Assembly: GCA_963729445.1 (NCBI GenBank)
Contig: CAVSNU010000002.1
Location: 1,143,925-1,207,924 of the forward strand
Direction of reading: 5' to 3'
DNA from: an uncultured Chloroflexia bacterium
GTDB taxonomy: Bacteria > Chloroflexota > Chloroflexia > Thermomicrobiales > CFX8
Length of the DNA: 64,000 nucleotides
Every line of letters starts with the position of its first letter. Position 1 is the first letter of the stretch. Below the pieces are notes generated by a model. It had not been told where the DNA came from and did not search any database. It was given only the letters and a program-made list of their open reading frames with translations. The translations under genes were made by a program, and so were the position numbers. Shown piece by piece: positions 3,636 through 40,671 of this stretch.

Positions 3636-4385
3636 TTAGTGCGCCGGGTCGTTACTCGTCTTCTCGTCTGACACAATGACGCCATCCTTCATACGGATGA
3701 TTCGACTGGTCATCGCGGCAATCCTCGGGTCGTGGGTCACAATGACGAACGACTGCTGGTTACGGCGGTTGAGATCGACCATCAGGCCCATGACTTCGTC
3801 GGCGGTCTCTGAGTCCAGGTCACCGGTAGGTTCGTCGGCCCAGACGATGGCAGGCTCGTTGACGAGCGCCCGCGCGATCGTGACCCGCTGGCGCTGTCCA
3901 CCGGACAGCTCAGCCGGCTTGTGGGTGGACCAATCGCTCAAGCCGACCTGCTCCAGGCCCTTCAACGCCTGCTGACGCGCCTGCTTCGGGTTGACGCCGC
4001 TCACGACCAGGGGCAGCTCGACGTTCTCGACGGCCGAGAGCACCGGCAGCAGGTTATAGAACTGGAAGATAAACCCCATGTTCTTCGCACGATACTCGGT
4101 GCGGTCATTGTCTGAGAGGGAGGCGAGATCGTTGCCCCCGATTTTGATGATGCCGCTGGCAATCGTGTCCAGGCCGGACAGGCAGTTGAGCAGGGTTGTC
4201 TTTCCACAGCCCGACGGCCCCATGATGGCGACCATTTCACCGCGCCCAACGTGCAGGCTGACGCCGCGCAGGGCGTTGACACGGATTTTTCCAGTGTCAT
4301 AGGTCTTGACAACGTCAATCGCTTCGATTGCTGATTGGGTCAATTGGTCGCGCTTGGCCGTTGCTTGAGAAACGGACACGGACAT
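3636..4385 (-). CDS. ABC transporter ATP-binding protein (MacB/LolD-like)
   Basis: Walker [10 protein letters not shown], signature [15 protein letters not shown] and Walker [13 protein letters not shown]. Confidence 0.9.
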
Positions 4386-4589
4386 CGTGAAACCACCTTC
4401 TTCTATGCGTCGATCGTCACTGACCGGGCGTTTATCCCCGACAGTCTTCCCTGACTGGTCGGCGGCACGAGACAGGTCCCCAGCTTGCTATCTTCCTGCC
4501 TGAAACCGGATGCGATTGGTAAGTAAATCATAGAAGTCGAACGGTTGTTTGGTTAGTAGATGACGATTTATTAACCCCATACAAGGCGG

Positions 4590-4605
4590 TGTTTCACGTG
4601 AAACA
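4590..4605. other. parS: parS centromere-like site, perfect consensus TGTTTCACGTGAAACA
   Basis: Exact 16-bp palindrome read at 4590-4605, in the intergenic region between the ABC ATPase start and the PRC-barrel gene end. Confidence 0.75.
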
Positions 4606-4743
4606 CAGAGGCGCGCCGGGGTGACCACCGGAGATCGTTCCGGAGGTCACGGAGACCGGTGAAGATGCGCTTGGGCTATCTGTCGCACCGGTGCAGCGGC
4701 GTCACTCCTGCCTCAGGATGACGTCCAGGTATTCTCTCTCGCG

Positions 4744-5232
4744 CTACTCGCCCCGCGTGTCGATGCGTGGATTGGCGTGTGGCTGATGCGGATCGTCGTC
4801 AAACTGTTCCGGGCGCATCGAGTGGGTTTCTCCCGGCCGTTCCGTGAGCGGATCACGCACAGCCGGCGGTTTGGTCCAGTGATAGGGGAGGTTCCAGTAG
4901 CCGGCCAGCGCCGTCTCGTACTCCTCGCTGAACGGCACCGACGGATCGTGTTCAGGGGCGTCGTGCAGTTCCTCTTTAGCAGCATCCACGACAATGGGGT
5001 TGTTGGTTACCTGATCCCAGCGCAGCGGCGCGACCAGATACGTGCGACCCAGGCCAAGGAACCCGTCTGTTTCGAGTTCCAGGAAGCAATTCTGGGTGTG
5101 AAACTGGTCGATCAACAGATCAACGATGTGACCGAGCTTCTCGCCATCGCGGTCAACGACCTCGCGCCCTTGTAGACCCTCAATCTCCCGCGGTAGCGCA
5201 GTCTGCGCCTGGCTCGCTCGAATGTACTGCAT
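4744..5232 (-). CDS. PRC-barrel domain protein
   Basis: The N-terminal half (GREVVDRDGEKLGHIVDLLIDQ...YLVAPL) is PRC-barrel-like. The start is chosen at the internal ATG 5232, preceded by GAAGGGGGA; the ORF extends to 5289. Confidence 0.6.
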   Translation of the reverse strand: MQYIRASQAQTALPREIEGLQGREVVDRDGEKLGHIVDLLIDQFHTQNCFLELETDGFLGLGRTYLVAPLRWDQVTNNPIVVDAAKEELHDAPEHDPSVPFSEEYETALAGYWNLPYHWTKPPAVRDPLTERPGETHSMRPEQFDDDPHQPHANPRIDTRGE

Positions 5233-5305
5233 GCTTCCCCCTTCGGACAGGTGCACTGGTACAGCAGGGTTTATTCCACTATACGCCAACCGAGGGAAGC
5301 TACTA

Positions 5306-6358
5306 CTATTCGATCGCTTCTTCGCGCTGAATCTCGCGCCAGGAGAGACTCTCGCGCCACCAGAAGAAGAACCCCAGCATCGTTACCGGGAAGTAGAGCG
5401 CGGCGTGCGTGACCACGGCGTAGGAGAGCGCCGTCTCGCGCTGGATATCAAGTGCGCCGGCCAGCACCAGTACGACACCAGCCTCGAAGGGTCCGACATA
5501 GCCCGGTGAGGAGGGGATGAGCGTCGCCAGGTTCGCGACCGCCGTGACCATGAGAATGGCAGAGGGCGACAGGTTCAGGTCGAACCCCTCGGCGATCAGG
5601 TAATACGTCGACGCTTCGAGCGACCAGGCCAGTACCGATGCAGCCGCCACGATGGCCAGGTCCTGACGCCGGCGCAAGATCCCGAGCCCCTCAATAAATG
5701 AGTGCGCCATGTGTTCCACCCGCGAACCAACGCGATCAGGCAGGAACCCGACTGCCAGCGACAGCAGGCGGACCCGGATATCAGCTGCAAATACCATGAA
5801 GAAGAGCACGAGCGAACCCACCACAAACAGCCCGGTCGCGACGAGGAAGAGGTTGCGCAGATCGGTTGTGAGGGCGATCGAGAGCGAGGCGATCAGCATA
5901 AACAGCACCATCGTCAGGCCGTCGAACACGCGCTCGACGGCGATGGTCGCCAATGAACCCGTCTTGCGCACGTTGAATCGGGCCGAGAGCGCGTAGGAGC
6001 GCACGACCTCCCCGGCGCGCAGCGGCAGGACGTTGTTGGCCATGTAACCAATGACAACCACCGGGAACAGCTTCTTCGGCGGAATCGTCTGGATTGGCCG
6101 TAGGAGATAGGCCCAGCGCACCGCCCGCACGCCGACGCCGGCAAAATAGGCCGCCAGAGCCGGTAGAAGCCAACGATAGTTCGCGCTGCGCAGCGATTCA
6201 GCGATGAGGTTGAAATCCTGACCTCGCACGGCGAAGTAGATGAAGATCAGGCTGATGCCAAAGCCGATCCACACCCGCCACGACGACCGCATGGTCACGA
6301 TTACCCCCAGACGTCTGCGGAGTCTCTGGCTCTGGTCTACGGTCAAGATCCTCACCAA
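5306..6358 (-). CDS. UPF0104 / lysylphosphatidylglycerol-synthase-TM-region-like membrane protein
   Basis: 350-aa polytopic ORF with a conserved-looking RAVRWAYLL...NNVLPLRAGEVVR segment typical of flippase-like UPF0104 proteins. The start is uncertain (alternative M at 6292). Confidence 0.6.
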   Translation of the reverse strand: MVRILTVDQSQRLRRRLGVIVTMRSSWRVWIGFGISLIFIYFAVRGQDFNLIAESLRSANYRWLLPALAAYFAGVGVRAVRWAYLLRPIQTIPPKKLFPVVVIGYMANNVLPLRAGEVVRSYALSARFNVRKTGSLATIAVERVFDGLTMVLFMLIASLSIALTTDLRNLFLVATGLFVVGSLVLFFMVFAADIRVRLLSLAVGFLPDRVGSRVEHMAHSFIEGLGILRRRQDLAIVAAASVLAWSLEASTYYLIAEGFDLNLSPSAILMVTAVANLATLIPSSPGYVGPFEAGVVLVLAGALDIQRETALSYAVVTHAALYFPVTMLGFFFWWRESLSWREIQREEAIE

Positions 6359-6513
6359 CCCGACACTACCCTGTTACCTGGCACACAGCGCGAAAGGATA
6401 CCACCAGCCTTTCGCCCCCAACCCGGCCGGCAACCTCTTTCGTCAACCGGCGGCTAGTGGTACTCTGCTCGGTAGCTGTACAAGAGAATCGATGCGACAC
6501 ACAAGGAGCAAAC

Positions 6514-8843
6514 ATGGTTTACCGCGCGATGATGGGCGCCCCGGTGCGGCGCAAAGAGGACCCGCGTCTCATCACCGGCTCGTCGATGTACGTCGGCGAT
6601 CTGAAACTGCCCGGCATGCTGCATGCCATCTTCCTGCGTTCCCCGTTCGCCCACGCGCGCATCAACGGCATCCACACCGAGGCCGCGATAGTCCGCACCG
6701 GGCGTTGTCGCCGTCTACACCAACGAAGAGCTGCGTCAATTCTGCGGCCCGATGCCGGGCGGCAGCGGCGGCGAGGGCGAGGCCGAGTCGGACGACATCG
6801 TCACCCCGACGCAGGAGCCGCTCGCGTCTGACAAAGTACGCTGGGCCGGCCAGGCGGTTGCCGTTGTCCTGGCCGAAAACGAGCAGCTTGGCCGCGACGC
6901 CGCAGACCTGATCGAGGTGGACTGGGAAGAGCTGCCGGCCGTCGTTGACCCACTGCAGGCCATGCAAGACGGTGCCCCGCTGATCTGGGAGCAGGTCAAG
7001 AACAACATCGGACTGGAGCACAGCCGCACGAGCGGCGATGTCGAGGGTGCGTTCGCGAGCGCCGACGTCACCATCTCCGAGCGCATCATCTCCCAGCGAC
7101 TGGTGCCGCTGGCGATGGAGGGGCGCGCCGTCGCGGCATCGCCGGACCCGCTCACCGGTGGGCTGACCGTCTGGGTCTCGACCCAGGGTCCCCACGGCTG
7201 GCGCAACGCCGCCGCGCCGCAACTTGGATTGAAGCAGTCGCAGCTGCGGGTGATCGCGCCGGAGGTCGGCGGCGGATTCGGCAGCAAGTTCGGCGTCTAC
7301 CACGAGGAATTGATCGTCGCGGCCATCGCGAAGCATCTGAAGCGCCCGGTGCGATGGGTCGAGACGCGCTCCGAGAACTTCCTGGCGACCAACCACGGCC
7401 GCGACCAGATCGCCGACATCGAGCTGGCCGCGACAAAGGACGGCAAGATCACCGGCTTGCGACTGCAGGTCATTCAGGACGGCGGAGCCTATCCGAAAGG
7501 CGCTGGGGCTGCCGTATCTGCACCGCGACCATGGCCGTCGGCTGCTACGACATCCCGGCCGTTGATCTCGGCATCAAGGCCGTCTACACCAACACGATGG
7601 CGAACGGCGCCTACCGTGGCGCCGGCCGGCCGGAAGCCGCCTATTACATCGAGCGCGCGATCGACATGCTGGCCAACAAGCTGGGCAATGGACCCGGCAG
7701 AGCTCCGCAGGCTCAACTTCATCGAGCCCGAGGCGTTCCCCGTTACAACCGCCACCGGCGAGAAATACGACACCGGCGAGTACGCGAAGGCGCTTGACAA
7801 GGCGCTCGAAGTCTCCGGCTACGCAGCAGCTGCGCAAGGAGCAGGAGGAAGCCCGCAAGGCAGGGCAAGCTCTACGGGTATCGGCATGGCTCCTACGTCG
7901 AGATCTGCGGCTTCGGCCCGTGGGAGAGCAGCACCGTCAAGAGTCGAGCCGGGCGGCGCGGTCAGCGTCTACACCGGCATCTCGCCGCACGGCCAGGGCC
8001 AGGAGACGACCTTCGCCCAGATCGTGGCCGACAAGATCGGCGCGGACTTCGACGACATCGTCGTCCACCACGGCGACACCGACAACACCGCGCAGGGCAA
8101 CGGCACCGGCGGCAGCCGCGGGCTGGTCGTCGGCGGCGGCGCGCTGCTCCTCTCCCTTGCCAAGATCCGCGAGAAGGCCGACAACATCGCCGCGCACCTG
8201 CTGGAAGTCGCCCCGGAAGACATCGAGCTGGCCGGCCAGAAGTATCCAGGTGAAGGGTACGCCTGACCGCTCGGTGACGCTGGCAGAGATCGCCGGCGCG
8301 GCCTATGGCGGCGGGCTGCCAGACGGACATCGAAGCCGGCCTGGACACGACCGAATACTTCAGCCCGGCCGACGAGACCTTCCCGTTCGGCACCCACATC
8401 GCGGTGGTGGAGATCGACCCGGAGAGCGGCACGGTCAAGCTCACCGAACTACTTCTCGATCGACGACTGCGGCAACGTCGTCAGCCCGCTGCTGCTCGCC
8501 GGCCAGGTCCACGGCGGGCTGGCGCAGGGCATCGCCCAGGCGCTCTGGGAAGAGGCCGTCTACGACGAATCCGGCCAGTTGATCACCGCGACGCTGATGG
8601 ACTACGCCATGCCAAAGGCCGAGTTCTTCCCGCCGTTCGAGCTGGACCGCACGGTCACCACGTCGCCACTCAACCCGCTCGGCGCCAAGGGCATCGGCGA
8701 GGCCGCGACGATCGGCTCGACCCCGGCCGTCGCCAACGCGGTGGTCGACGCGCTGCTCCCCGCTGGGCATCACCCACATCGACATCCCGGCCACGGCGCC
8801 GAAGGTGTGGAGCGCGATTATGCAGGCCAAGATGGACGGATAA
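6514..8843 (+). pseudogene. Xanthine dehydrogenase family / form-II CoxL-like molybdopterin-binding large subunit, copy 1, at least 12 frame changes
   Basis: AAGGAG RBS precedes ATG 6514. N-terminus MVYRAMMGAPVRRKEDPRLITG and the AYRGAGRPEAAYYIER loop are present. The homologous reading hops frames near 6694, 7502-7521, 7687, 7826, 7866, 7879, 7890, 7942, 8246, 8324, 8449 and 8756. The stop TAA at 8841-8843 is reached only after the corrections. Confidence 0.8.
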
Positions 8844-8875
8844 CGCCCACCACAATCAAACGACGCACACCAACA

Positions 8876-8897
8876 GGGCCGGCACTCATGCCGGCCC
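8876..8897 (+). terminator. GC-rich hairpin after CoxL-like copy 1
   Basis: GGGCCGGCA ctca TGCCGGCCC (9-bp stem, 4-nt loop) followed by TGTTT. It abuts the second parS. Confidence 0.5.
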
Positions 8898-8913
8898 TGT
8901 TTCACGTGAAACA
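8898..8913. other. parS: parS centromere-like site, perfect consensus TGTTTCACGTGAAACA
   Basis: Exact 16-mer read at 8898-8913, between the two CoxL-like copies. Confidence 0.75.
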
Positions 8914-8993
8914 ATCTCGCTCACCTTTCGGCGAAGTGGTGGTACTCTGGAACGTAGATAGCCAGCATCTGCAATAGCGCCGAAGGAGGGACC

Positions 8994-11317
8994 ATGGTTC
9001 GCAGTGCGATGATGGGCGCGCGAGTGCGCCGCAAGGAAGATCCCCGGCTCATCACCGGCTCATCCATCTATGTCGACGACCTGCAGCTACGAGGCATGAC
9101 TCACGCGGCCTTCTATCGGTCCCCCTTCGCGCATGCCACGATCACCAACATCGATACCTCCGCTGCCCGCGCTGCTCCCGGCGTCATCGCCGTCTATACC
9201 AACGAGGAGCTGCGCGAGTTTTGCGGCACGATGATTGACAAGGTTGGCAGCGAGGGCGTGCCTCCTGAAGAAGACCCTCCGATCCCAACACCGGAAGTGC
9301 AACCCATGGCCCAGGGGAAAGTACGCTGGGTTGGCGAGCCGGTCGTCGTTGTGCTCGCCGAGAGTGCGGCTCAAGCTCGGGATGCCGTCGAGCTCATCTC
9401 GATCGATTTTGAGGAACTGCCGGCCGCTATCAATTGCGAAGCCGCCATGGCTGACGGCGCACCGCAAATCTGGGAAGAAGTCAAGAACAACATCGGGGTA
9501 CACAAGATCCACACCACGGGCGATGTTGACGCAGCGTTCCGTGACGCAGACGTCACCATCTCGCAACGGATCATCTCACAACGGGTGATTCCGCTGGCGA
9601 TGGAGGGGCGGGCAACCACCGTCGCACCAGACCCGCTCACGGGCGGCCTCACCGCCTGGACTTCCACGCAGGCTCCGCACTGGTGGCGGAATGAGATCGC
9701 CGGCCGGATTGGACTGAGCCAGTCCAAGTTTCGGGTGATTGCCCCGGAGGTGGGCGGCGGGTTCGGCAGCAAGATCAGCTCGTACCAGGACGATCTGGTG
9801 GTCTCGGCGCTGGCCAACAAGCACAAACGCACCGTGAAGTGGATCGAAGACCGCACCGAGAACATGGTGGGCACCCACCATGGGCGCGCCCAGATCGCGG
9901 ACATCGAGCTGGCCGCCACCAACGACGGGAAGATCACCGGGATGCGGCTGCACGTCATCCAGGACGCGGGCGGATACCAGCGCGGGCTCGATCTGGTCGA
10001 ATTCACCGCGACGATGGCGTGCGGCTGCTACGCCATTCCAGCACTCATGACGGACGTCAAGGCGGTCTACACCAATACCATGGCGGTGGGCGCGTATCGT
10101 GGCGCCGGCCGGCCGGAAGCCGCCTACTACATCGAACGCGGCATCGACATCCTGGCCGCAGAAGCTCGGCAAAGATCCCGCCGAGGTACGCAAGATCAAC
10201 TTCATCGCCCCCGATCAGTTCCCCTTCACCACCGCGACCGGCGAGAAATATGACACGTGGGGAGTACGCTCGAGCGCTGGATAAAGCCCTGGACGTTTCG
10301 AACTACGCGCAGCTGCGCCAGGAGCAAGCAGAAGCACGCGAACAGGGGCGGCTCTACGGCATCGGTCATGGCCTCCTACGTCGAGATCTGTGGCTTCGGA
10401 CCGTTCGAGAGCAACGCCGTCAAGGTGGAGCCGAGCGGTGCGGTGAGCGTCTATACCGGCATCTCGCCACATGGCCAGGGCCAGGAAACGACGTTTGCGC
10501 AGATCGTGGCCGATCAGCATCGGCGCCAATTTCGATGAGGTGGTGGTTCACCACGGCGACACCGACAACACCGCGCAGGGCAACGGCACCATGGGTAGCC
10601 GCGGTCTGGTCGTTGGCGGCGGCGCATTGATGCTCTCGCTCGACAAGATCCGGGAGAAAATCAACAGGATCGCCGCCCACATGCTGGAGGTCGCAGTCGA
10701 AGACATCGAGCTCGTCAACGACAGGTACCAGGTGAAAGGTACGCCGGATCGCTCGGTCGACGCTGGCGCAGGTTGCCGAGGAAGCCTACGGCGGCAACAT
10801 CCCGAAGGGAATGGAGCCGGGACTTAACACGACCGACTACTTCGAGCCGCCCGACGAGACCTTCCCGTTCGGCACGCACGTCGTTGCCTGCGAGATCGAT
10901 CGCGACACTGGCAACGTGACGCTCCTCAAATACTTCTCGATCGACGACTGTGGCACTGTCGTCAGTCCTCTGCTGGTAGCGGGTCAGATCCACGGCGGTC
11001 TCGCCCAGGGTATTGCGCAAGCACTCTGGGAAGAGGCGGTCTACGACGAGACCGGCCAGCTCGTCACGGCGACGCTGATGGACTACGCCATGCCGAAAGC
11101 CGATTTCTTCCCGCAGTTCGTTTTGGACAGTACCGTCACCACGTCGCCGCTGAATCCGCTCGGCGCCAAGGGAATCGGTGAAGCGGCGACGATCGGCTCG
11201 ACGCCGGCCGTCGCCAACGCCGTGCTGGATGCCCTCTCGCCACTGGGCATCACCCACCTGGATATCCCGTTAATTGCGCCGAAGGTCTGGGCAGCGATCA
11301 ACACATCACCGCAATAA
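8994..11317 (+). pseudogene. Xanthine dehydrogenase family / form-II CoxL-like molybdopterin-binding large subunit, copy 2, 5 frame changes
   Basis: GAAGGAGGG RBS precedes ATG 8994. The sequence is colinear with copy 1 (MVRSAMMGARVRRKEDPRLITG ... AYRGAGRPEAAYYIER ... GEAATIGSTPAVANAV). The frame moves F3>F1>F2>F3>F1>F2 near 10160, 10258, 10367, 10518 and 10758. Confidence 0.8.
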
Positions 11318-11345
11318 CCCCTCATGAGGGCGGACTAGATATAAG

Positions 11346-11388
11346 TTTTGGCAACCGAACTTTGTCGGCCAAAGTTCGGTTGCCAAAA
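11346..11388. repeat. Perfect 18-bp inverted repeat with 7-nt loop (TTTTGGCAACCGAACTTT gtcggcc AAAGTTCGGTTGCCAAAA)
   Basis: Read directly. It lies 29 nt after the CoxL-like copy 2 stop and 77 nt before the Xre antitoxin start. It could be a terminator or an operator. Confidence 0.6.
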
Positions 11389-11464
11389 TCTGTCGTCGGG
11401 CGTATTCTTAGCGTATCGATCCTGAGTTGCCCGCTCTTCTGGCCCATAGACAGGATTAGCCACC

Positions 11465-11815
11465 ATGGTCATGATCGACATTACACCGCGTCAAGCTCTT
11501 GAGCAGCTTGAGTATGATCTCGCGCTAACGCCAGCTGACCTAGCTAATGCATTAGGCGTTTCCCGACGCACGCTTGAGAGGTGGCGATCCGGCGAGGCAT
11601 ATCCTCAGCGCGAGTCACGAGAGAAGCTGGCTGAGCTTATTGAGCTTGATGAGCATCTACGTGAGGCGTTCAAAGCAATCGAGGACGTCCGAGAATGGAT
11701 GCATACTGAAGCTCGCTACCTCGGATGGGCTACTCCGGCAGACATGGTCCGTCTCGGAAGAACGGATCGTGCAAGGGCCACGATCGAAGTTCTTGAATCC
11801 GGCATCTTCATTTAA
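11465..11815 (+). CDS. Xre-family antitoxin with C-terminal RES-toxin-binding (DUF2384/MbcA/ParS-like) domain
   Basis: HTH-like LANALGVSRRTLERWRSGEAYP and a C-terminal WMHTEARYLGWATPADMVRLGRTDRARATIEVLESGIF. It lies directly upstream of the RES gene. Confidence 0.8.
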   Translation: MVMIDITPRQALEQLEYDLALTPADLANALGVSRRTLERWRSGEAYPQRESREKLAELIELDEHLREAFKAIEDVREWMHTEARYLGWATPADMVRLGRTDRARATIEVLESGIFI

Positions 11816-11827
11816 CGACCTATCTAC

Positions 11828-12382
11828 GTGAACGCCGCCGACGCGCCGCACCCCGAAGACTTGCTTCGCAGATGCCCTATCGTCGACTGGCGCGGCACCG
11901 CTTGGCGTGCACACGGTCGAATGTACCCTGGGTTAGATCCTGGAGGGGCACGAAAGAATTCAGGTCGCTTTCATCGTGCACCCGACTGTTTTCCAGAGCA
12001 CGCTACATGGACTGCACTCTATCTCGGCCTTGCCCCCGAAATCTGCCTTGGCGAGATCCTGCGACATACACCACCGAGAATGATGTCACGTCTCAATATC
12101 TATCGGATCAGCGAAATAGATGTCGAGCTTAATGCGGTCATCGACTGCCGCGAGATCGCGGCGCTAGGAATCTGCCTCGACGCTCTCCTGAACGACCTTG
12201 ACTACACTGTTCCACAACGCATTGCCGCGGCAGCACTCGCTACAGGTGCAGAAGGCCTGCTCGTGCCATCCGCTACCCGGCTGGGGGACAACCTCGTCGT
12301 CTTCCCCGACCAGCTTCATCCTGATTCACGTCTCGAAATCGTTGGCAGCCGCGATCCGGTGCTCTATGTTGAGCGCTCGTAG
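11828..12382 (+). CDS. RES domain toxin (MbcT/ParT family)
   Basis: GTG start. R-E-S signature context: GRFHRAP, ALYLGLAPEICLGE and LLVPSATRLGDNLVVFP. It is paired with the upstream Xre/DUF2384 gene. Confidence 0.8.
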   Translation: MNAADAPHPEDLLRRCPIVDWRGTAWRAHGRMYPGLDPGGARKNSGRFHRAPDCFPEHATWTALYLGLAPEICLGEILRHTPPRMMSRLNIYRISEIDVELNAVIDCREIAALGICLDALLNDLDYTVPQRIAAAALATGAEGLLVPSATRLGDNLVVFPDQLHPDSRLEIVGSRDPVLYVERS

Positions 12383-14275: not shown

Positions 14276-17200
14276 CTACGCGCTAACCGGAGTGACCTTG
14301 GCCTCTGCGATCTTCTCGTTCAGGGCCGAAAGGTCGGTGTTTAGCAACTCGTCGAGCTCAGCAAGGGCGGTATCAACCCGGCCGGAGAGGTCCTCGAAGA
14401 GCTCCTGCGACTGCCGGTTGGGCTTGCCTTCGGCGCTGGCGACAACACCCGCCAGGCTGGCCAGCTTGGAGTTCAGCATGACCGGGAACTTCAGGCGGTC
14501 CTTGGGTCCCTTGGCGCGGGTCTGCACGATCTGGCCCTCAACTCCGGACAGCTTCTCCTTGAAGTCCCTGGCTGCGCTCTTGAACGACTCATCGTCGATG
14601 CGCTCTTCCCAGGCTTCGATCTGTTTGGTGATGGCGCGGATCTTGCCGACGCCCTCGTGGGCGGCCGAGATCTTGTCACGGATCTGCTTCTGCAGCGCGA
14701 ACTGGGCATCGAAGTCGGCCTGGGTCGATCCCACCCGCGGGTCCCCGAGGATCTGGAACGACTCGGTCAGGGTCTTGTCGCCGACTTTCAGCTGCACCTG
14801 GTACTCGCCGGGAGCGACCTTCGGGCCACCGACAAACGTCTTACTGACCTCGTCGCCCTCAATCAGGGTTGCGTCGGCAATGCGCATGTTCCAGACGAAG
14901 CGATTCGTCCCGGCCTCGGTCTTGACCCGCTTTTCCTTCTTCTTCTCGTCCTTCTGCGAGGAGAATGACTTGATCTCGTTGCCCTCCTTGTCGAGGAAGG
15001 TCAGAGTGACCTCGCCGCCCGGCTGCTCCTTGAAGGAGTAGTGCACGATCACGCCGTCCGGTGGGTTGTTCCCGGCATCGAGAAAGAAGATCTCCGTCTC
15101 ACCATCCGGGTTGGTCGTCTGTTTGTACGTCACGTTCAGACCATTCGCGGCCTTCAGGTTCTTACCCTGAATCGCCTGGTGTCCGAAGCCCTCTTTTCCT
15201 GCGAATCGCGTCGTGTCTCTGGGCTTGAAGAGGTGCACGTCCTTGCAGAGCACCTCGTCTACCATCTGCCGCAGCGGCGAGATGTCGTCCAGGATCCAGA
15301 ACGAGCGCCCGTGGGTTGCCACGACGAGATCGCTGCCGTGGATAACGAAGTCATGGATCGGCACGAGCGGCATGTTGAGCTGCAACCGTTGCCAGTTCTC
15401 GCCGTCATCGAACGAGACATAAATCCCAGTCTCGGTACCGGCGAACAGGAGTCCGCGCCGCTGGGGATCTTCCCGAATCACCCGGGTGAAATCATCCTCG
15501 GGGATGCCGTTGACGATCGTGGTCCAGGTCTTGCCGTAGTCGCTGGTCTTGAACAGGTACGGCTTGTTGTCGTGGCTCTTGTAGCGTGTGGCGGCCACGT
15601 AGGCCGTTGCAGCGTCATGCGGCGAGGCTTCGATGATGCTGATGAGCGCCCAGTCCGGCAGCTCTGGTGGATTCACGTTTTCCCAGTTCTCACCGCCGTC
15701 GCGGGTGAGGTGGAGCAGACCATCATCCGAGCCGGCCCAGATGACGCCGCCCTCAACCGGGGACTCCGCCACCGCGAAGATCGTGCCGTAGAACTCGGCC
15801 CCGGTCATGTCCTTTGTCACGGGACCACCCGACGGACCCATCGTCTCAGGATCGGCACGCGTCAGGTCGGGACTGATCGGGTCCCAGCTCTGGCCATCGT
15901 CGTTCGAGCGAAAGAGCAGGTTGCCGGCTGTATAGAGCACACCCGGCTTGTGCGGTGAGAGCAGGGTGGGCGAGGTCCACTGGAAGCGGTATCTGGTCTC
16001 GCTCGCGGCATGCCCGGAAACATTCTCCGGCCAGACGGTGATGTTCTTCTGCAACCCGGTGGACCGATCGTAGCGGGTGAGCAAGCCCTGGTAGCTGCCG
16101 GCGAACACAATATCGGGGTTGTCGGGCCGCACCGCGATGTAGCCGCTCTCACCCCCGCCGATCTCGTCCCACTCGGTGAAATTGATCGCCACCGCGTTCG
16201 ACCGGCTGGGCAGGCTCAACGTCGTGTTGTCCTGCTGGGCACCGTACACCCGGTAGGGCGTCTGGTTGTCGGTGATGACGTGATAGAACTCGGCCGTCGG
16301 CTGGTTATAAAGCGTCGACCAGGTCTCACCGCCGTTGTAGCTGACACAGGCGCCGCCGTCGTTGCCCATCATCATGCGCTCGGGATCCGCCGGGTCAAAC
16401 CAGAGATCGTGGTTGTCAACGTGCGGTGTCGAGACGACCTGGTACGTAGTGCCACCATCAACTGATTTCCAGAGCTCGAAGTTCGGCACCCAGACCGTGT
16501 CGGGGTCCTGTGGGTCGGCGGCGATGTGCATCCAGTACCAGGGGCGCTGGATCAGGTTGGCGTCGCCGGTCAGTTTCTTCCAGGTCTCGCCATAGTCTTC
16601 AGAGCGATAGACGCCAGATTCCTCGACGTGATCCACAATTGCCCAAACGCGGCCGGCCTTCGGGGCAGCGGCAAGCCCGATCTTGCCCAGCAGTCCTTCC
16701 TTGGGAAGTCCCGGGTTGCGGGTAATCTCGGTCCAGCTGTCGCCGCCGTCCTCGGTCTTGTAGATGCTGCTGTCTGGACCACCACTCTCCAGGCTGTAGG
16801 GTGTGCGATGCGCCTCCCAGAACGCGACATAAAGGATACGCGGGTTGGTCGGGTCCATCGTGATGTCGCAGACACCGGCCTTGTTGCTGCGAAACAGCAC
16901 CTTCTCCCAGCTCTGGCCGCCGTCCTGAGTGCGGTAGACGCCGCGCTCCTCGTTCCGCCCCCAGACATGCCCGAAACCACCGACGTAGGCGATGTCCGGG
17001 TTCGTGGGGTGAATCTCGATCTCGGAGATGTTCTGGGTGTCTTCCAGCCCGCAGTGCCGCCAGCTCTTGCCGGCGTCGCTGGATTTGTAGACGCCATCAC
17101 CAAGCGAGACATTGCCGCGGATGGTCGTCTCGCCCATGCCGGCGTAGATCACGTTCGGATCAGAGGGTGAAACAGCCAGCGCTCCTACTGAAGCGCGCTT

Positions 17201-17392
17201 GAAGTAACCATCCGAGACGTTCTCCCAGATCACACCCCCGTCGGTCGTCTTCCACACTCCACCACCGGTCGAGCCAAAATAGAAGACCCTGCGGTCTGAG
17301 GGATCGCCGGCAACAGCCACGACGCGGCCGCCACGATGCGGTCCGAGGAGGCGGTACTGCATTGATTTCAGCAGATCAGGGTTTACGCTCAA
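14276..17392 (-). CDS. Asp-box (BNR) repeat / sortilin-Vps10-like double beta-propeller protein, paralog 1 (1038 aa)
   Basis: About 10 SxDxGxTW-type Asp boxes (SSDAGKSW, TQDGGQSW, TEDGGDSW, SNDDGQSW, TRDGGENW, TSDYGKTW, SFDDGENW ...). TTG start after AAGGAG. No signal peptide. The C-terminal ~170 aa look helical. Confidence 0.8.
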   Translation of the reverse strand: MSVNPDLLKSMQYRLLGPHRGGRVVAVAGDPSDRRVFYFGSTGGGVWKTTDGGVIWENVSDGYFKRASVGALAVSPSDPNVIYAGMGETTIRGNVSLGDGVYKSSDAGKSWRHCGLEDTQNISEIEIHPTNPDIAYVGGFGHVWGRNEERGVYRTQDGGQSWEKVLFRSNKAGVCDITMDPTNPRILYVAFWEAHRTPYSLESGGPDSSIYKTEDGGDSWTEITRNPGLPKEGLLGKIGLAAAPKAGRVWAIVDHVEESGVYRSEDYGETWKKLTGDANLIQRPWYWMHIAADPQDPDTVWVPNFELWKSVDGGTTYQVVSTPHVDNHDLWFDPADPERMMMGNDGGACVSYNGGETWSTLYNQPTAEFYHVITDNQTPYRVYGAQQDNTTLSLPSRSNAVAINFTEWDEIGGGESGYIAVRPDNPDIVFAGSYQGLLTRYDRSTGLQKNITVWPENVSGHAASETRYRFQWTSPTLLSPHKPGVLYTAGNLLFRSNDDGQSWDPISPDLTRADPETMGPSGGPVTKDMTGAEFYGTIFAVAESPVEGGVIWAGSDDGLLHLTRDGGENWENVNPPELPDWALISIIEASPHDAATAYVAATRYKSHDNKPYLFKTSDYGKTWTTIVNGIPEDDFTRVIREDPQRRGLLFAGTETGIYVSFDDGENWQRLQLNMPLVPIHDFVIHGSDLVVATHGRSFWILDDISPLRQMVDEVLCKDVHLFKPRDTTRFAGKEGFGHQAIQGKNLKAANGLNVTYKQTTNPDGETEIFFLDAGNNPPDGVIVHYSFKEQPGGEVTLTFLDKEGNEIKSFSSQKDEKKKEKRVKTEAGTNRFVWNMRIADATLIEGDEVSKTFVGGPKVAPGEYQVQLKVGDKTLTESFQILGDPRVGSTQADFDAQFALQKQIRDKISAAHEGVGKIRAITKQIEAWEERIDDESFKSAARDFKEKLSGVEGQIVQTRAKGPKDRLKFPVMLNSKLASLAGVVASAEGKPNRQSQELFEDLSGRVDTALAELDELLNTDLSALNEKIAEAKVTPVSA

Positions 17393-17490: not shown

Positions 17491-20400
17491 CTATCCCACC
17501 GGCGCCACACCCAGGGACGCGATCTTCGTGTTGAACTTGGCCACATCGGTGTCAATCACATGCTGCAGGGCATCGCGCTGGGCGTCAACCCGCGTCGCCA
17601 GCTGTGCAAACACCTCCAGCGATCCCTGGGTTGGGCGGGCATCGGCCTCGTCGACCATGAAGGCCAGGCTGGCCAGCTTCTCCTTGAGGCGGTTCGGGAA
17701 GCTGCGTGGATCCGAAAGCTGCACCTGAATCAGCTCGTCCTCGATCATCTTGAGCTTGGCCTTCAGCGCGATGGCCATCTCATGAATCTCAGCGTGCCGC
17801 TCGTGAGAGGCTGTCTTCTGTTCCCATTCGTCAATCTGTTTGACGATCGCCCGCAGGCGGTTGAGCGTGTCATGCAGCTCGGAGACCTTGTCTCGAATCT
17901 GTACCTTGAGGTCGAACTGCGCCTGAAGATCCTCCAGGCTTACCGACAAGCGCGGGTCAGGAGCGATCTCGAATGGCTGGGTCAACGTCTGGTTGCCAAC
18001 CGTCAATTGCACACGGTACTGTCCCGGCAACGCTCGCGGGGCCAGCGCCGGACCGATGAATGCCGAGAAGAGATCGCCCTCGGTCTCCTCCTTCAGCTTG
18101 GTTGCCGTGGGGTAGCGTAGATCCCAGACAAAGCGGTTCGCGCCAGCTTCCGCCGTGGGTTTCAGCTCGCCCTTCTCTTCGGTCAGGCTGGAGTACGAGA
18201 TAATCGGGTTGCCGTGATAGTCGAGGATGTTGATCTTCAGCTCGCCCTCGGGCTTGTCTTTCAGATAGTAATGCACGAGCACACCGTTGGGTGGATTCAC
18301 ACCGGCATCGAGGTTCGTTTGCTTACTATCCTTCTGCTTGTAGGCGTAGACCAACGGGCCGGTCATCTTGTAATTGACGAAGTCCTGCGTCGGAGTGTTG
18401 CCGTAGCCCTCGTAGATCCGGAACCGGAACGCAGGCTTGGGAGCGAACAAGTGCGCCGATTTACCCGCCAGGTCAGCCTGCATCTGCCGCAATGGGGCCA
18501 GGTCGTCCAGGGCCCAGAACGAGCGGCCATGGGTAGCGGCCACGAGCTCGTGGTCTTCCATCACCAGGTCATGGATTGGCGCGACAGGTAACCCGCCACC
18601 TTCAAGACGCTGCCAATTGCCCCCGTCATCAAACGAGACATAGACGCCGGTCTCGGTGCCGGCGAACAGCAGGCCCGGACGATCGGGGTTCTCCCGGATA
18701 ACCCGGGTGAAGTCATCCTCTGGAATCCCAGCAGTGATCTCGATCCAGGTCTGCCCGTAGTCGTTGGTCTTATACAGATAGGGCCTCGTGTCATCGTGCT
18801 TGTAGCGGGTCGCGGCGACGTAGACAGTGGCCGGGTCGTGCGGCGAGACCTCGATCACGCTGATTAAGGCCCATTCCGGCAGATCCGGTGGCGTGACATT
18901 CGTCCAGCTCTTCCCGTCGTCGCGCGAAATGTGGACCAGCCCGTCATCGGTGCCAACCCAGAACACGCCCCGTTCGTGCGGGGACTCTTTGAAGGCGAAG
19001 ATCGTGCAGTAGGCTTCAGCGCCGGTATTGTCGCGAGTGATCGGACCACCCGAGGCCCCCAGCTTGCTTGGATCGTTACGAGTAAGGTCCGGACTGATCT
19101 CTTCCCAGGTCGTACCATCGTCGGTTGACCGATGGACATGGTTGGAGGCCACGTAGAGCACATTGGGGTCGTGCGGAGAGAACTCGATCGGGAAGGTCCA
19201 CTGGAAGCGGTAGCGATGTGCGCCGGCACCCTCACCCATACCGTGCAGTTCCGGCCAGACGGTGACATTACGCTTCTGGCCGGTCTTGGGGTCATAGGCG
19301 ATGAGGCGTCCGTGCCCTAACCCGCTGCCAATTGCGCCGGCGAAGATCGTGTGGGGGGCAGTGGGTTTGATCGCGATGTAGCCACTCTCACCCCCGCCCG
19401 GCTCGAACCAGTTGCGCGGCGTGATCGCACCCTCGAACGACATGCTGGCCACCGCCAGGGCAGTGTTGTCCTGCTGCGAACCGTAGACGTTATACGGCAC
19501 CTTACCGTCGGTGGTCACATGATAGAACTGCGCCGTTGGCTGGTTATAGAGTGTCGACCACGTAATGCCCCCATTGAACGAGACACAGGCCCCGCCGTCG
19601 TTGCCCTCGATGATGCGGTTGCTGTCCTGCGGGTCGATCCAGAGACCGTGGTTGTCACCGTGCGGCGTCGGAACCTCGAAGAAAGTCTTGCCGCCGTCAA
19701 TCGACTTCTTGCAGGGCATGTTCAGGACCCAGACCGTGTCTGCATCCTGCGGATCGGCGAAGATGTGCATGTAGTACCAGGCGCGGGTGCGCAGATCGCG
19801 GTCCTCGCTGAGCCGCTGCCAGGTGTCGCCGCCGTCATCCGAGCGGAAGAGCGCGCCGTCGTCGGCTTCGACCAACGCCCAGACGCGGTCCCGCTGCGCA
19901 GGAGAGACCGCCACACCGATTTTGCCGAGCACCCCCTCGGGTAGCCCCGGGTTGCGAGTGATCTCGGTCCAGGTGTCGCCGCCGTCGGTCGTCTTCCAGA
20001 GACCGGAGTCCTCGCCGCCGCTCACCAGTTGGTGCGGATAACGCTGCGCCTGCCAGATCGAGGCGTAGATGATCCTCGGGTTGTTGGGGTCCATCGAGAT
20101 GTCGTGGCTGCCAGCCTTGTCGCTCTTGTAGAGCACCTTCTCCCAGGTTTGGCCGCCGTCCTTCGAGCGATAGACACCACGCTCCTTGTTCGGACCCCAG
20201 GCGTGGCCGAGCGCCGCGACGTAGACCAGGTCCGGGTTCCTGGGATGGATGGCGATATCGCCGATGTGACGCGTGTCCTTGAGTCCAACGTTCTTCCATG
20301 TGCGACCGCCGTCGGTTGACTTGTAGACGCCATCGCCGTGCGAGACATTGCCCCGGATCGCCGTCTCACCAGTGCCGACATAGATCACGTTCGGGTCCGA

Positions 20401-20625
20401 CTCCGACACGGCGATTGCCCCGACGGCTGATGTGTTAAAGAAACCGTCCGAGATGTTCTCCCAGTAGTCGCCACCGTCAATCGTCTTCCATACGCCACCG
20501 GCGCAGGCCCCGAAATAGAAGGTAGCCTTCTCCGTCGGATGGCCGGCGACCGCCACTACTCGTCCACCCCGATGCGGGCCAATCAGCCGCCATTCAAGTG
20601 ACTGCAGGAGGCTCGATTCAACCAT
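17491..20625 (-). CDS. Asp-box (BNR) repeat / sortilin-Vps10-like double beta-propeller protein, paralog 2 (1044 aa)
   Basis: Colinear with paralogs 1 and 3 and shares the same Asp boxes. N-terminus MVESSLLQSLEWRLIGPHRGGRVVAVAG. AGGGGA RBS. Confidence 0.8.
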   Translation of the reverse strand: MVESSLLQSLEWRLIGPHRGGRVVAVAGHPTEKATFYFGACAGGVWKTIDGGDYWENISDGFFNTSAVGAIAVSESDPNVIYVGTGETAIRGNVSHGDGVYKSTDGGRTWKNVGLKDTRHIGDIAIHPRNPDLVYVAALGHAWGPNKERGVYRSKDGGQTWEKVLYKSDKAGSHDISMDPNNPRIIYASIWQAQRYPHQLVSGGEDSGLWKTTDGGDTWTEITRNPGLPEGVLGKIGVAVSPAQRDRVWALVEADDGALFRSDDGGDTWQRLSEDRDLRTRAWYYMHIFADPQDADTVWVLNMPCKKSIDGGKTFFEVPTPHGDNHGLWIDPQDSNRIIEGNDGGACVSFNGGITWSTLYNQPTAQFYHVTTDGKVPYNVYGSQQDNTALAVASMSFEGAITPRNWFEPGGGESGYIAIKPTAPHTIFAGAIGSGLGHGRLIAYDPKTGQKRNVTVWPELHGMGEGAGAHRYRFQWTFPIEFSPHDPNVLYVASNHVHRSTDDGTTWEEISPDLTRNDPSKLGASGGPITRDNTGAEAYCTIFAFKESPHERGVFWVGTDDGLVHISRDDGKSWTNVTPPDLPEWALISVIEVSPHDPATVYVAATRYKHDDTRPYLYKTNDYGQTWIEITAGIPEDDFTRVIRENPDRPGLLFAGTETGVYVSFDDGGNWQRLEGGGLPVAPIHDLVMEDHELVAATHGRSFWALDDLAPLRQMQADLAGKSAHLFAPKPAFRFRIYEGYGNTPTQDFVNYKMTGPLVYAYKQKDSKQTNLDAGVNPPNGVLVHYYLKDKPEGELKINILDYHGNPIISYSSLTEEKGELKPTAEAGANRFVWDLRYPTATKLKEETEGDLFSAFIGPALAPRALPGQYRVQLTVGNQTLTQPFEIAPDPRLSVSLEDLQAQFDLKVQIRDKVSELHDTLNRLRAIVKQIDEWEQKTASHERHAEIHEMAIALKAKLKMIEDELIQVQLSDPRSFPNRLKEKLASLAFMVDEADARPTQGSLEVFAQLATRVDAQRDALQHVIDTDVAKFNTKIASLGVAPVG

Positions 20626-20874
20626 TCTGTCCCCTATCCGTTCTTGACTTCTCCATAAGCTTTACAAGCGCCTAACGCCGGATGAAGCGCCATCAGGTAG
20701 GTGAGAGACACCATCTGCTTCGCTCCCGTACAACCTTTCAATGAGCTCAATTTCGCATACATTAGCGCGACTACGGAATGTAGGCAATCGTGGGAGCGGG
20801 CGCGATTGAACCGCACCCCTAACCCCTAAGGAAGATGACCCGGCTACGACACGATTCGCGAGGATCGCCACATT

Positions 20875-20951
20875 GCGTACGGGCGTAATTCATTGCGCCC
20901 TGCCTGGCCGCCCCGGCGTCGAAGAGGGCGCAATAAATTACGCCCGTACGC
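20875..20951. repeat. Long hairpin: 27-bp arms (1 mismatch) with 23-nt loop
   Basis: GCGTACGGGCGTAATTCATTGCGCCCT (20875-20901) pairs with AGGGCGCAATAAATTACGCCCGTACGC (20925-20951). Confidence 0.6.
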
Positions 20952-21134
20952 AGATGAGGGAGCTGTCAATTACCGGATAGACTCAGACACTCCCATAACA
21001 GGTATAGGAACACACGCCGGAATTTCTGTACCCAAGATGGGTCTTTTGTGCCCCTCGTGGGCTTCGGGGGTTGGCTATTCTGAACAGAGAGGCTGACGAT
21101 GGGGTCGCTGGTACCCGAACAAGAAAGAGGCGCC

Positions 21135-22025
21135 ATGTATTTGCGTATGGACCGCATACCGATAGAGCTTCCAGAGCCAAAAGGCCCATCTCCAAACTCC
21201 GCTTCCGCGGTTCAGGAGCTGCTTGGCGGGAAATGTGGCGAGATGTCGACGCTGATGAACTACACGATGCAGTCCTTCAACTTCCGGGGCCGCAAAGAAT
21301 ATCGTCCCTTCTACGACCTGATCGCCAACATCGCCACGGAAGAGCTCAGCCATATCGAGCTCGTCTCCTACACGATCAATCTGCTGCTCAACGGCGCAAC
21401 CGAGCGCAACCCCGATCCGGTGGCAGCCCCACTCAAAAACGCGGTCGACGCTCGCAACCACTACCATTTCCTCGCCAGTGGTCAGCAAGCTCTGCCGGTC
21501 GATTCGATGGGCAATCCCTGGAATGGCACCTACGTCTTCTCAAGTGGCGATCTCAAGCTCGACCTGTTACATAACTTCTTTCTCGAGTGCGGCGCCAGAG
21601 CCAACAAGATCCGTGTCTACGAGATGGTCGACGATCCCGCGGCACGTGAGATGGTTGGTTATCTGCTAGTGCGTGGTGGTACCCATATCATCGCCTACGC
21701 CCGCGCGCTGGAGAAGCTGACCGGCGCGGACCTCGGTAAGCTCCTCCCCATCCCGGATATCAGCAACGCACGGTTTCCGGAGGCCCGCAAGTTTGAGGAG
21801 CGCGGACTCTACAACACGATGTTCCGCTTCAGCCCGGACGATTACCGGGAGATCAGCAAAATCTGGAATGGTCCCCACCCTGAAAACGGCGCCGAGCTGA
21901 CCGTCTCAGACGACATTCCGGAAGGATTCGCTCCACCAGACTTGCCGGCTGAACCGCAGCTGACTGCCCCGAGCGGCCTCGATCCACAAATGATCCAGGA
22001 GGTAGCCAAACGGCTCTCCGTCTAA
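21135..22025 (+). CDS. Manganese catalase
   Basis: MYLRMDRIPIELPEPKGPSPNSASAVQELLGGKCGEMSTLMNYTMQSF...ATEELSHIELV is typical of the Mn-catalase di-Mn site region. ATG 21135 is preceded by AAGAAAGAGG; the ORF extends to 21099. Confidence 0.85.
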   Translation: MYLRMDRIPIELPEPKGPSPNSASAVQELLGGKCGEMSTLMNYTMQSFNFRGRKEYRPFYDLIANIATEELSHIELVSYTINLLLNGATERNPDPVAAPLKNAVDARNHYHFLASGQQALPVDSMGNPWNGTYVFSSGDLKLDLLHNFFLECGARANKIRVYEMVDDPAAREMVGYLLVRGGTHIIAYARALEKLTGADLGKLLPIPDISNARFPEARKFEERGLYNTMFRFSPDDYREISKIWNGPHPENGAELTVSDDIPEGFAPPDLPAEPQLTAPSGLDPQMIQEVAKRLSV

Positions 22026-26300: not shown

Positions 26301-26470
26301 ACGCCGGCATCGGTGGTTTTCCAGACACCGCCACCAACCGCACCGAAGTAGAAGGTGGCCTTCGCGGTCGGATGCCCTGCGACTGCGACGACTCTACCAC
26401 CACGAAATGGACCGATCAGACGCCATTCAAGTGACTGAAATAGCCCGGGATTTATGGTCCCGTTCGACAT
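23339..26470 (-). CDS. Asp-box (BNR) repeat / sortilin-Vps10-like double beta-propeller protein, paralog 3 (about 1043 aa)
   Basis: Colinear with paralog 2, with long identical runs. The start is set at ATG 26470 after AGAGGAGGGG; the ORF extends to 26506. Confidence 0.8.
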   Translation of the reverse strand: MSNGTINPGLFQSLEWRLIGPFRGGRVVAVAGHPTAKATFYFGAVGGGVWKTTDAGVYWENISDGYFNTSAVGALAVSESDPNVIYAGMGETSIRGNVSHGDGVYKSTDGGKTWKNVGLKDTRHISRVRIHPNNPDLVYVSALGHIWGTNEERGVFRTTDGGQSWEKVLYKSDKAGAIDLTMDPNNPRILVAALWDAQRYPHALRSGGDDSSIWRSTDGGDTWEDITRNPGLPKGVLGKIGVAISPAKSGRIWALVEAEDGALFRSDDGGDTWQMVSDNGDLRRRAWYYMHIYADPSDADTVWVLNLQCWKSIDGGKTFSAIPTPHGDNQDLWIDPQDSNRMIEGNDGGANVTLNGAETWSSIYNQPTAQFYHAIADNRHPYRVYGSQQDNTALALPSRSANGAITTQEWYQPGGGESGYIAIRPDNPNIVYGGAIGSGAGNGRLLRYDHETFEERAINVWPEVTGMGRGAEALKYRFQWTFPIELSPFDPNTLYVTSNHVHKSTDEGMSWEVISPDLTRNDPSKLGPSGGPITNDNTGAEAYCTIFAFHESPHEQGVFWAGSDDGLIHISRDGGKNWDNVTPAALPEWALISVIEVSPHDPATVYVAATRYKHDDNKPYLYKTNDYGKSWTEIVNGLPEDDFTRTIREDPNKRGLLYAGTETGVYVSLDDGCNWQKFQLNLPLTPIHDLHIKNKDLIAATHGRAFWILDDLTPLYQISDEVAEKPAHLFTPGEAYRFRNLGRFNQGSNGQKIYGRVSGMLVTSYQKQDETGENRIDFLDAGKNPPSGVVIHYYLKDAPEGDVTLTILDEGGNEIKTFSSSTKNGRKLTRKAGSNRFVWDMRYPDAQGLEDAPSGPRAQDNLVGPVAVPGTYKAQLTVNGATLTETFKIEKDTRVDASHADLQAQFDLLLKVRDKLSELHQTTRDIRNVRKQVASWAERVDDESVKEAAKSLDEKLKVVECELVNPEAASPRQFPSGLNDRLGALTGLIANADMRPTKQSYEVYDKLSGQVDEQINCYQELLKSDVAAFNAKLKEQKVAPVVA

Positions 26471-26571
26471 ATTGCCCCTCCTCTGGATGCCTCCGTTGTC
26501 CGTCATACGCGAGGGCTAATGTCGCATAGATCAACGAAGGGCACAAGAGAGGGAGCGGGTAGGGGACCGGG

Positions 26572-39377: not shown

Positions 39378-39393
39378 TTTCCTAATCTCCCTA

Positions 39394-40551: not shown

Positions 40552-40671
40552 ATGTTCGTATCAATAACCTCAAACACCGTCGGTAGTCAAGGCAACCTAG
40601 TCTGAGTGGCCAGGTGACAATATCGAGAGCTAAAGAGCTACGAATGGCCAGACGTGAAACTCTCGGTCGCT

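Follow-up and report, generated by a model that had tools for sequence, protein, structure and literature searches.

Single-nucleotide frameshifts in a tandem pair of CoxL-like genes of an uncultured Chloroflexia bacterium, probably local consensus errors

Collapsed long-read assemblies gain insertion and deletion (indel) errors where nearby allelic variants misplace the alignment of reads (PMC8445201). In the assembly of Trypanosoma brucei Lister 427, frameshifted open reading frames (ORFs) of the consensus were attributed to such variants, and the same ORFs were intact once the haplotypes had been separated (PMC8445201). Residual errors of PacBio assemblies are found in homopolymers in more than 70% of cases and appear mostly as C/G deletions in high-GC genomes (PMC8574707). 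Natural decay is documented by a curated set of bacterial pseudogenes containing 696 indels with power-law sizes, namely 396 deletions, of which 131 are 1 nt long, and 300 insertions (PMC6054270). The subject of this study is a window of 64,000 nucleotides (from the 1.28-Mb contig CAVSNU010000002.1 of assembly GCA_963729445.1, an uncultured Chloroflexia bacterium), in which two tandem genes encoding CoxL-like Mo-binding subunits are interrupted by 18 indels of a single nucleotide each.

The insertions in the window are located at sites resembling variable silent positions and can in this respect be likened to the case of T. brucei Lister 427. That organism, however, is a diploid eukaryote, the haplotypes of which were phased from reads, whereas a strain mixture in the window is deduced from the sequence alone; moreover, 18 putative errors in approximately 4 kb and in two genes only represent an unusually high and local density. 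The pseudogenes of leaf-nodule Burkholderia (PMC6054270) are similar in that several frameshifting indels are found per gene while the flanking genes are intact. In contrast to the pair in the window (17 insertions to one deletion, 1 nt only, no stop codons, substitution count at the level of intact orthologues), they have more deletions than insertions, indel sizes following a power law, substitutions and stop codons.

Since both genes look functional after removal of the indels, the breaks would most likely be consensus errors rather than signs of gene decay. We assign a probability of roughly 80% to the reading that all 18 indels are local consensus errors of the deposited assembly and that the organism itself does not carry them. 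Its two genes most likely encode intact Mo-binding subunits of 772 amino acids, as those of relatives do.

Frameshifts and coding signal of the two genes

In the raw sequence, both copies fall into several overlapping ORFs in differing frames. The frame-corrected genes encode 772 amino acids each. The features of the pair are as follows:

6503-6516, plus strand: ribosome-binding site AAGGAG (6503-6508) and ATG start codon of copy 1, intact, read directly from the sequence
6514-8843, plus strand: CoxL-like copy 1, xanthine dehydrogenase family Mo-binding subunit, stop codon TAA at 8841-8843
8876-8912, plus strand: GC-rich hairpin (8876-8897) and palindrome GTTTCACGTGAAAC (8899-8912) between copy 1 and copy 2
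8982-8996, plus strand: ribosome-binding site GAAGGAGG (8982-8989) and ATG start codon of copy 2, intact, read directly from the sequence
8994-11317, plus strand: CoxL-like copy 2, Mo-binding subunit in tandem with copy 1, five single-base insertions

Frameshifts were located with a frameshift-aware protein-to-DNA aligner of our own, for which seven intact homologues from public genome contigs, the frame-corrected paralogue and the closest orthologues served as references. The events were placed in nucleotide alignments with three intact copy-1 orthologues (81-83% nucleotide identity) and two copy-2 orthologues (76%). Compared to the intact orthologues, copy 1 contains 12 one-nucleotide insertions and 1 one-nucleotide deletion, and copy 2 contains five one-nucleotide insertions. 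This amounts to 18 events, 17 insertions and one deletion, each of exactly 1 nt. The five +1 corrections in copy 2 were obtained with every reference. For copy 1, 10-11 corrections were obtained with the seven distant references, and 13 with the frame-corrected paralogue or a close orthologue as reference and a lowered frameshift penalty. The events are listed below, with a base that can be read as extra in brackets:

6689-6692 (best T6689), plus strand: +1 nt insertion, copy 1; the two-allele reading (see below) does not fit
7501-7502, plus strand: +1 nt insertion, copy 1; GG[C]G CTG, Gly wobble C/G
7521, plus strand: +1 nt insertion, copy 1; CTG[C]ACC
7686-7688, plus strand: +1 nt insertion, copy 1; GGC[A]ATG
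7823-7826, plus strand: +1 nt insertion, copy 1; TAC[G]CAG or GCA[G]CAG
7861-7866, plus strand: +1 nt insertion, copy 1; GGG[C]AAG
7873-7879, plus strand: +1 nt insertion, copy 1; GGG[T]ATC
7889-7891 (after 7890), plus strand: -1 nt deletion, copy 1; wobble base of Ala gone, ATG GC- TCC, the three orthologues having C, T and A
7942-7943, plus strand: +1 nt insertion, copy 1; AAG A[G]TC, orthologues ATC or GTG, possibly both alleles of an Ile/Val site
8245-8247, plus strand: +1 nt insertion, copy 1; TA[T]C CAG, Tyr wobble T/C
8323-8328, plus strand: +1 nt insertion, copy 1; previously given as gac gga C atc
8447-8449, plus strand: +1 nt insertion, copy 1; previously given as gaa C tac
8755-8762, plus strand: +1 nt insertion, copy 1; in or beside a CCCC run, the sole event in a run of at least three
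10156-10159 (about 10158), plus strand: +1 nt insertion, copy 2; GCC[G]CAG
10257-10258, plus strand: +1 nt insertion, copy 2; AC[G]T GGG
10366-10367, plus strand: +1 nt insertion, copy 2; GG[T][C]ATG, one orthologue GGT, the other GGC
10516-10519, plus strand: +1 nt insertion, copy 2; C[A]GC ATC or CAG[C]ATC
10758-10759, plus strand: +1 nt insertion, copy 2; GT[C]G ACG, Val wobble C/G

A preliminary description of the locus, made from the window alone, had proposed an alignment to orthologues, which now confirms 18 indels relative to intact genes. The frameshifts and the excess of insertions reported there are retained, while the numbers given (12 and 5 corrections, 15 of them insertions) have to be revised to 13 and 5, with 17 insertions. 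The orthologue alignments reproduce its example sites at 8324, 8449, 10367 and 10518, and the cluster of five events mentioned is located within 7823-7943.

No in-frame stop codon is present in frame-corrected copy 1 or copy 2. At 117 columns conserved to at least 95% among 43 intact homologues, copy 1 shows two and copy 2 three mismatches, compared to 3.3 on average for the intact homologues themselves (leave-one-out). Towards orthologues, copy 1 has dN/dS values of 0.08-0.12 and copy 2 values of 0.10-0.17; between intact orthologues the values are 0.07-0.12. Lineage-unique nucleotide changes were counted at 94 in copy 1 (89-104 in the orthologues) and 205 in copy 2 (231-242), and an excess of substitutions within the indel-dense patches was looked for and not found. 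Unique amino acid changes are more numerous in copy 1 (26, compared to 13-21 in orthologues), with an only slightly raised share of first- and second-position changes; the higher count may partly result from the choice of the base removed. The 18 indels are thus not accompanied by a detectable matching excess of substitutions, and there is room for a few extra changes at most. Approximately 3% of random substitutions in these genes lead to a stop codon, so that about five stop codons would be expected at a substitution:indel ratio of 10, while none was seen (P = 0.005 for zero). Relaxed constraint in the form of raised dN/dS, stop codons or lost conserved residues was not found. All of this is in line with the preliminary description, which had seen no nonsense codon, had noted that ribosome-binding sites and start codons are retained in both copies and had spoken against an old pseudogene; the dN/dS calculation on frame-corrected genes that it had suggested gives values around 0.1, the level of intact orthologues.

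The genes tested outside the pair are free of such events. With the same aligner and sensitive setting, no frameshift was detected in 19 other genes of the window (about 21.7 kb; genes with orthologues in related contigs), for which the rate of the CoxL-like genes, approximately one indel per 259 nt, predicts about 84 (P about 4e-37), and the Pfam profile matches of the other ORFs in the window are essentially full-length. The effect is therefore local to the CoxL-like pair, as stated before. Within the pair, the events are grouped into two patches (6689-8762 and 10156-10759) separated by a clean gap of 1.4 kb (P about 0.02 under uniformity). The first event is located 175 nt into copy 1 and the last one 559 nt ahead of the end of copy 2. 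This two-patch pattern is compatible with patchy read support or with mosaic strain divergence and proves neither. An artefact is expected to give local errors with clean surroundings and clean orthologous loci, and this is what the 21.7-kb control and the two syntenic contigs described below show.

Intact orthologues and identity of the genes

A protein search with frame-corrected copy 1 yielded intact orthologues of 772 amino acids with 85-88% identity. Two contigs, L083 (from a soil metagenome, NCBI assembly GCA_965609545.1) and L084 (a farmland scaffold, ENA ERZ1761213), have a gene order in common with the window: FtsX, ABC ATPase, PRC-barrel, LPG-synthase TM, two CoxL-like genes, Xre antitoxin and RES toxin, with BNR proteins further on, past a few genes that differ by contig. 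The tandem pair is intact in both of them (772 and 772 amino acids in L083, 772 and 770 in L084), likewise without adjacent CoxM or CoxS. No protein with CoxM or CoxS domains was found among the window ORFs scanned with Pfam profiles, in agreement with the preliminary description, or beside the orthologues in L083 and L084, so that a coxMSL cluster is not present at these loci. Form I large subunits are encoded in such a cluster together with their FAD and 2Fe-2S partners, the genes for which could lie at another place in this genome. To judge from the related contigs, the orphan state of the tandem pair appears to be its normal, conserved condition. As two syntenic relatives have such an orphan pair in intact form, decay does not follow from the orphan state, and the earlier suggestion of a recent decay of orphan large subunits is not supported as it stands.

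The structure of the locus varies among relatives. A single CoxL-like gene is encoded in L085 (1716-4040) and in L001 (ENA ERZ25039539 contig_73763; 10001-12317), and L083 harbors an extra ORF of 844 amino acids without Pfam hit upstream of copy 1 (7302-9836). Because of this variation (one or two copies, extra ORF), strain heterogeneity at the locus is plausible. An independent assembly of the same species was not found in the protein database, in which the best orthologue is 88% identical. A scan of genome contigs reached relatives of at most 52% identity, and none of the JGI metagenome contigs contained the degenerate start-of-copy-2 pattern or the exact intergenic 34-mer.

Several genes of L001 are called in pieces (ECH_1 in three, biotin carboxylase in two and CN_hydrolase in two, e.g. 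4021-4756, 4813-6702 and 20785-21625), and a +1 insertion, GGA[t]TAC, interrupts its CoxL-like gene at 11315, which suggests that this assembly is generally error-prone. When a fragment of 385 amino acids was used as query, only truncated database proteins (<670 amino acids) were listed and the intact copy-2 orthologue, 80% identical over the full corrected gene, was missed; the full-length corrected query recovered the orthologues. The nearest relatives of a frameshifted query can stay hidden in this way.

Large subunits of the xanthine dehydrogenase family contain an N-terminal Ald_Xan_dh_C domain (a/b hammerhead) together with MoCoBD_1 and MoCoBD_2 and have a size of approximately 750-800 amino acids. 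Both corrected proteins belong here according to NCBIfam models aligned end to end. PF01315, PF02738 and PF20256 were identified on the ORF fragments of the window and on the intact orthologues, the domain set of the latter being Ald_Xan_dh_C, MoCoBD_1 and MoCoBD_2. Full-length matches were obtained to the NCBIfam models of the CO dehydrogenase large subunit and of the glyceraldehyde dehydrogenase alpha subunit. The scores for TIGR02416 (CO dehydrogenase large subunit; 676 and 639 bits) are below the equivalog cut-off of 991, so that the proteins do not qualify as form I, and those for the glyceraldehyde dehydrogenase model (710 and 695 bits) are below the cut-off of 790. The form I CoxL loop is AYXCSFR (AYRCSFR), the active-site Cys of which binds Cu. 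Both copies have the loop GAYRGAGRPE, a "form II" type motif, and not the form I loop. The best matches of the corrected proteins in the PDB are the CoxL/CutL chains 8uem_A, 1ffu_B and 1n5w_B (E = 1e-150 to 1e-170).

On the basis of the scores below cut-off, the AYRGAGRPE loop and CoxL/CutL as nearest chains, both proteins are predicted to be "form II CoxL-like" subunits and not bona fide CO dehydrogenase subunits. They resemble this family in the Ald_Xan_dh_C/MoCoBD set of the orthologues, the length of about 772 amino acids, the loop and the PDB matches; they differ from true CO dehydrogenase and glyceraldehyde dehydrogenase in the scores, the missing form I Cys and the missing adjacent CoxM/CoxS. 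The label CoxL-like used in the preliminary description is hence appropriate at the superfamily level and does not extend to a true CO dehydrogenase subunit, given scores under the curated cut-offs.

Origin of the indels

With the curated pseudogene set as baseline, at least 17 insertions among 18 events have a probability of 6.5e-6 (PMC6054270); at a ratio of 50:50, the value is 7e-5. The extra base copies a neighbour in seven of the 17 insertions, where 8.8 are expected at random, and a slippage signature was not found, only one event being located in a run of at least three. Homopolymer or slippage errors were rejected for these reasons. The indels of the pair do not show the spectrum typical for decay in bacteria, in which insertions do not outnumber deletions, sizes vary and slippage contexts occur. 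We know of no mutational spectrum made up solely of 1-nt insertions and nearly free of substitutions. Real decay or local hypermutation, both of which had been considered in the preliminary description, would require precisely such a spectrum and are not supported as proposed there. Were the insertions real, an insertion-only process adding 1 nt would have struck two adjacent paralogues 17 times very fast and almost free of substitutions, which we regard as quite improbable; its cause could be repeated targeted DNA breaks, each gaining a single base on repair, or a local mutator. The host would be an uncultured soil bacterium, probably of the Chloroflexota (Thermomicrobiales-like), going by the source names of the homologues.

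As the source of the presumed errors, collapsed strain haplotypes are most likely, with a patch of poor read support as the alternative. The locus would have been assembled from reads of at least two co-occurring strain haplotypes differing at many, mostly silent sites in both genes. The consensus step would sometimes have written both alleles of a variable site in series, resulting in a 1-nt insertion, and once would have dropped a variable site, resulting in the single deletion. The positions of the events were examined with a two-allele test, in which the extra base and the differing adjacent base have to be interchangeable, i.e. either can be removed with equal fit to the orthologue proteins; random insertions simulated into the same two genes served as null, and three tolerance settings were used. 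Of the 17 insertions, 12 pass at the strict setting (7.4 +/- 2.1 expected, P = 0.017) and 15 with mild tolerance (9.4 +/- 2.1 expected, P = 0.003). At 10366-67, T and C are the alleles carried by the two orthologues, and at 7942-43, A and G agree with ATC and GTG, the codons found among orthologues. A mixed-haplotype consensus gives a reason for the preference of silent two-allele sites, while mutation in an already frameshifted gene gives none. A strict model with all insertions at wobble positions fails: for three events (6689, 7943 and 10516), the best placement is between the first and second codon positions, and the all-wobble version is therefore too strict.

Other technical causes fit less well. 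The frame-corrected copies share only 72% of their amino acids and 74% of their nucleotides (55% of those at third codon positions), and the longest stretch that they have exactly in common measures 42 nt. A collapse of the repeat, or cross-mapping between its copies, was rejected as the main cause, as confusion of repeats is unlikely at 74% nucleotide identity. Of the artefact confined to the paralogous repeat that the preliminary description had offered as one option, the artefact is the best-supported explanation, while the confusion of the two copies has to be dropped. Systematic residual errors of the PacBio type do not match either, since these occur mostly in homopolymers and, at high GC, as deletions.

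A number of points speak against consensus errors. The pattern is unlike that of typical residual long-read errors, and a less common failure mode is therefore needed. Indels in exactly two genes with clean neighbours are also what selection would leave if both genes were dead, gene boundaries should mean nothing to a technical process, and the remainder of the window resembles a high-quality assembly. Furthermore, the tolerance of the two-allele test was a choice, and the excess is not significant at the loose setting (16 of 17 compared to 13.3 expected, P = 0.087). A technical cause, as well as the particular mechanism behind it, is what we infer from the indel catalogue, the protein signal, the intact orthologues, the localisation and the excess of two-allele positions observed here.

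A technical artefact of a different kind is possible, though clearly less probable than collapsed haplotypes: the two patches 6689-8762 and 10156-10759 may have been thinly read or missed by polishing, so that random read errors survived, with the insertion bias stemming from read chemistry or a heaviest-path consensus algorithm. Uneven read support would fit the density of about one indel per 259 nt in two patches around a clean 1.4-kb gap (P 0.02), the independence of the indels from homopolymers and the absence of a substitution excess, and the split genes and the +1 insertion of L001 suggest that such errors occur in metagenome assemblies of this group. Random errors, however, should not favour silent positions compatible with two alleles (P = 0.003-0.017), published residual PacBio errors are found in homopolymers in more than 70% of cases, and a drop in coverage only within two genes of a clean 64-kb window is hard to explain.

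That both paralogues are dispensable and are real, very recent pseudogenes, hit by true 1-nt insertions that arose in an unusual process biased towards insertion, such as repeated double-strand-break repair adding a single nucleotide, is unlikely. The restriction of the indels to two genes whose joint loss is conceivable, with flanks untouched as under purifying selection, would be in line with it, as would the changing gene content of the locus in the single-copy relatives L085 and L001, the slightly higher dN/dS on the branch of copy 1 (about 0.12 compared to 0.06-0.10, three-taxon estimate) and its 26 unique amino acid changes. On the other hand, a ratio of 17:1 with all events of 1 nt is unlike measured spectra of bacterial pseudogenes (P = 6.5e-6), slippage contexts are absent, and the substitution:indel ratio would have to lie below about 1, compared to at least 5-10 in natural spectra. 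Stop codons are missing, conserved residues and ribosome-binding sites are intact, the intergenic hairpin and palindrome are in place, and the enrichment at silent two-allele sites has no mutational rationale. Programmed recoding, by which +1 ribosomal frameshifting, transcriptional slippage or RNA editing would restore the frame at every site, has the perfectly kept coding signal on either side of every shift as its sole support and is hardly conceivable: the 18 sites share no motif and have neither a slippery run nor a stop or rare codon where the frame changes, a single frame suffices for the same proteins in the orthologues, and no bacterial system is known to us that corrects so many sites outside repeats. 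A shared motif, either for recoding or as a restriction-type target, was not found in the 18 site contexts.

Neighbouring features and significance

The spacers separating the paired CoxL-like genes of the window, L083 and L084 all contain hairpin-plus-palindrome elements. The palindrome GTTTCACGTGAAAC occurs once with one mismatch in the spacer of L083 (12319-12470) and twice in that of L084 (12319-12565). As a perfect 14-nt palindrome it is found twice in the window (4591-4604 and 8899-8912), with 0.01 occurrences expected by chance, and could be an operator or a REP-like element. Downstream (3') of copy 2, a hairpin with a 19-bp stem (11346-11388) is probably a bidirectional terminator. It is followed by genes encoding an Xre-like antitoxin (Xre_MbcA_ParS_C) and a RES-domain toxin (11465-12382), directly downstream of the CoxL-like pair and at the same position in L083 and L084.

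Three intact paralogous BNR / Sortilin-Vps10 repeat proteins of approximately 1040 amino acids are encoded on the minus strand (14276-17392, 17491-20625 and 23339-26506), the first of which is 86% identical to its orthologue in L083. A stretch of low GC content (37906-41000; 0.51-0.52 compared to 0.61 for the window) contains genes for DUF5131 and GMT-wHTH proteins and an adjoining nucleotidyltransferase-HEPN protein. The DUF5131, GMT-wHTH and HEPN genes are found in the same order in contig L082 from a relative, and the stretch could be a small mobile or defence islet.

If the indels of the CoxL-like pair were real, they would point to a highly local, insertion-specific mutational mechanism not yet known. 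If they are an artefact, as we consider probable, their biological weight is little and their value to some extent practical, the pair being a clear case of a dense patch of false frameshifts within an otherwise clean long contig. Such a patch would lead annotation pipelines to label two functional oxidoreductase genes as pseudogenes and would inflate estimates of gene decay in uncultured lineages. Its signature, i.e. insertions only, 1 nt only, at positions resembling silent variable sites and without substitution load, could be used to flag similar patches without access to the reads.

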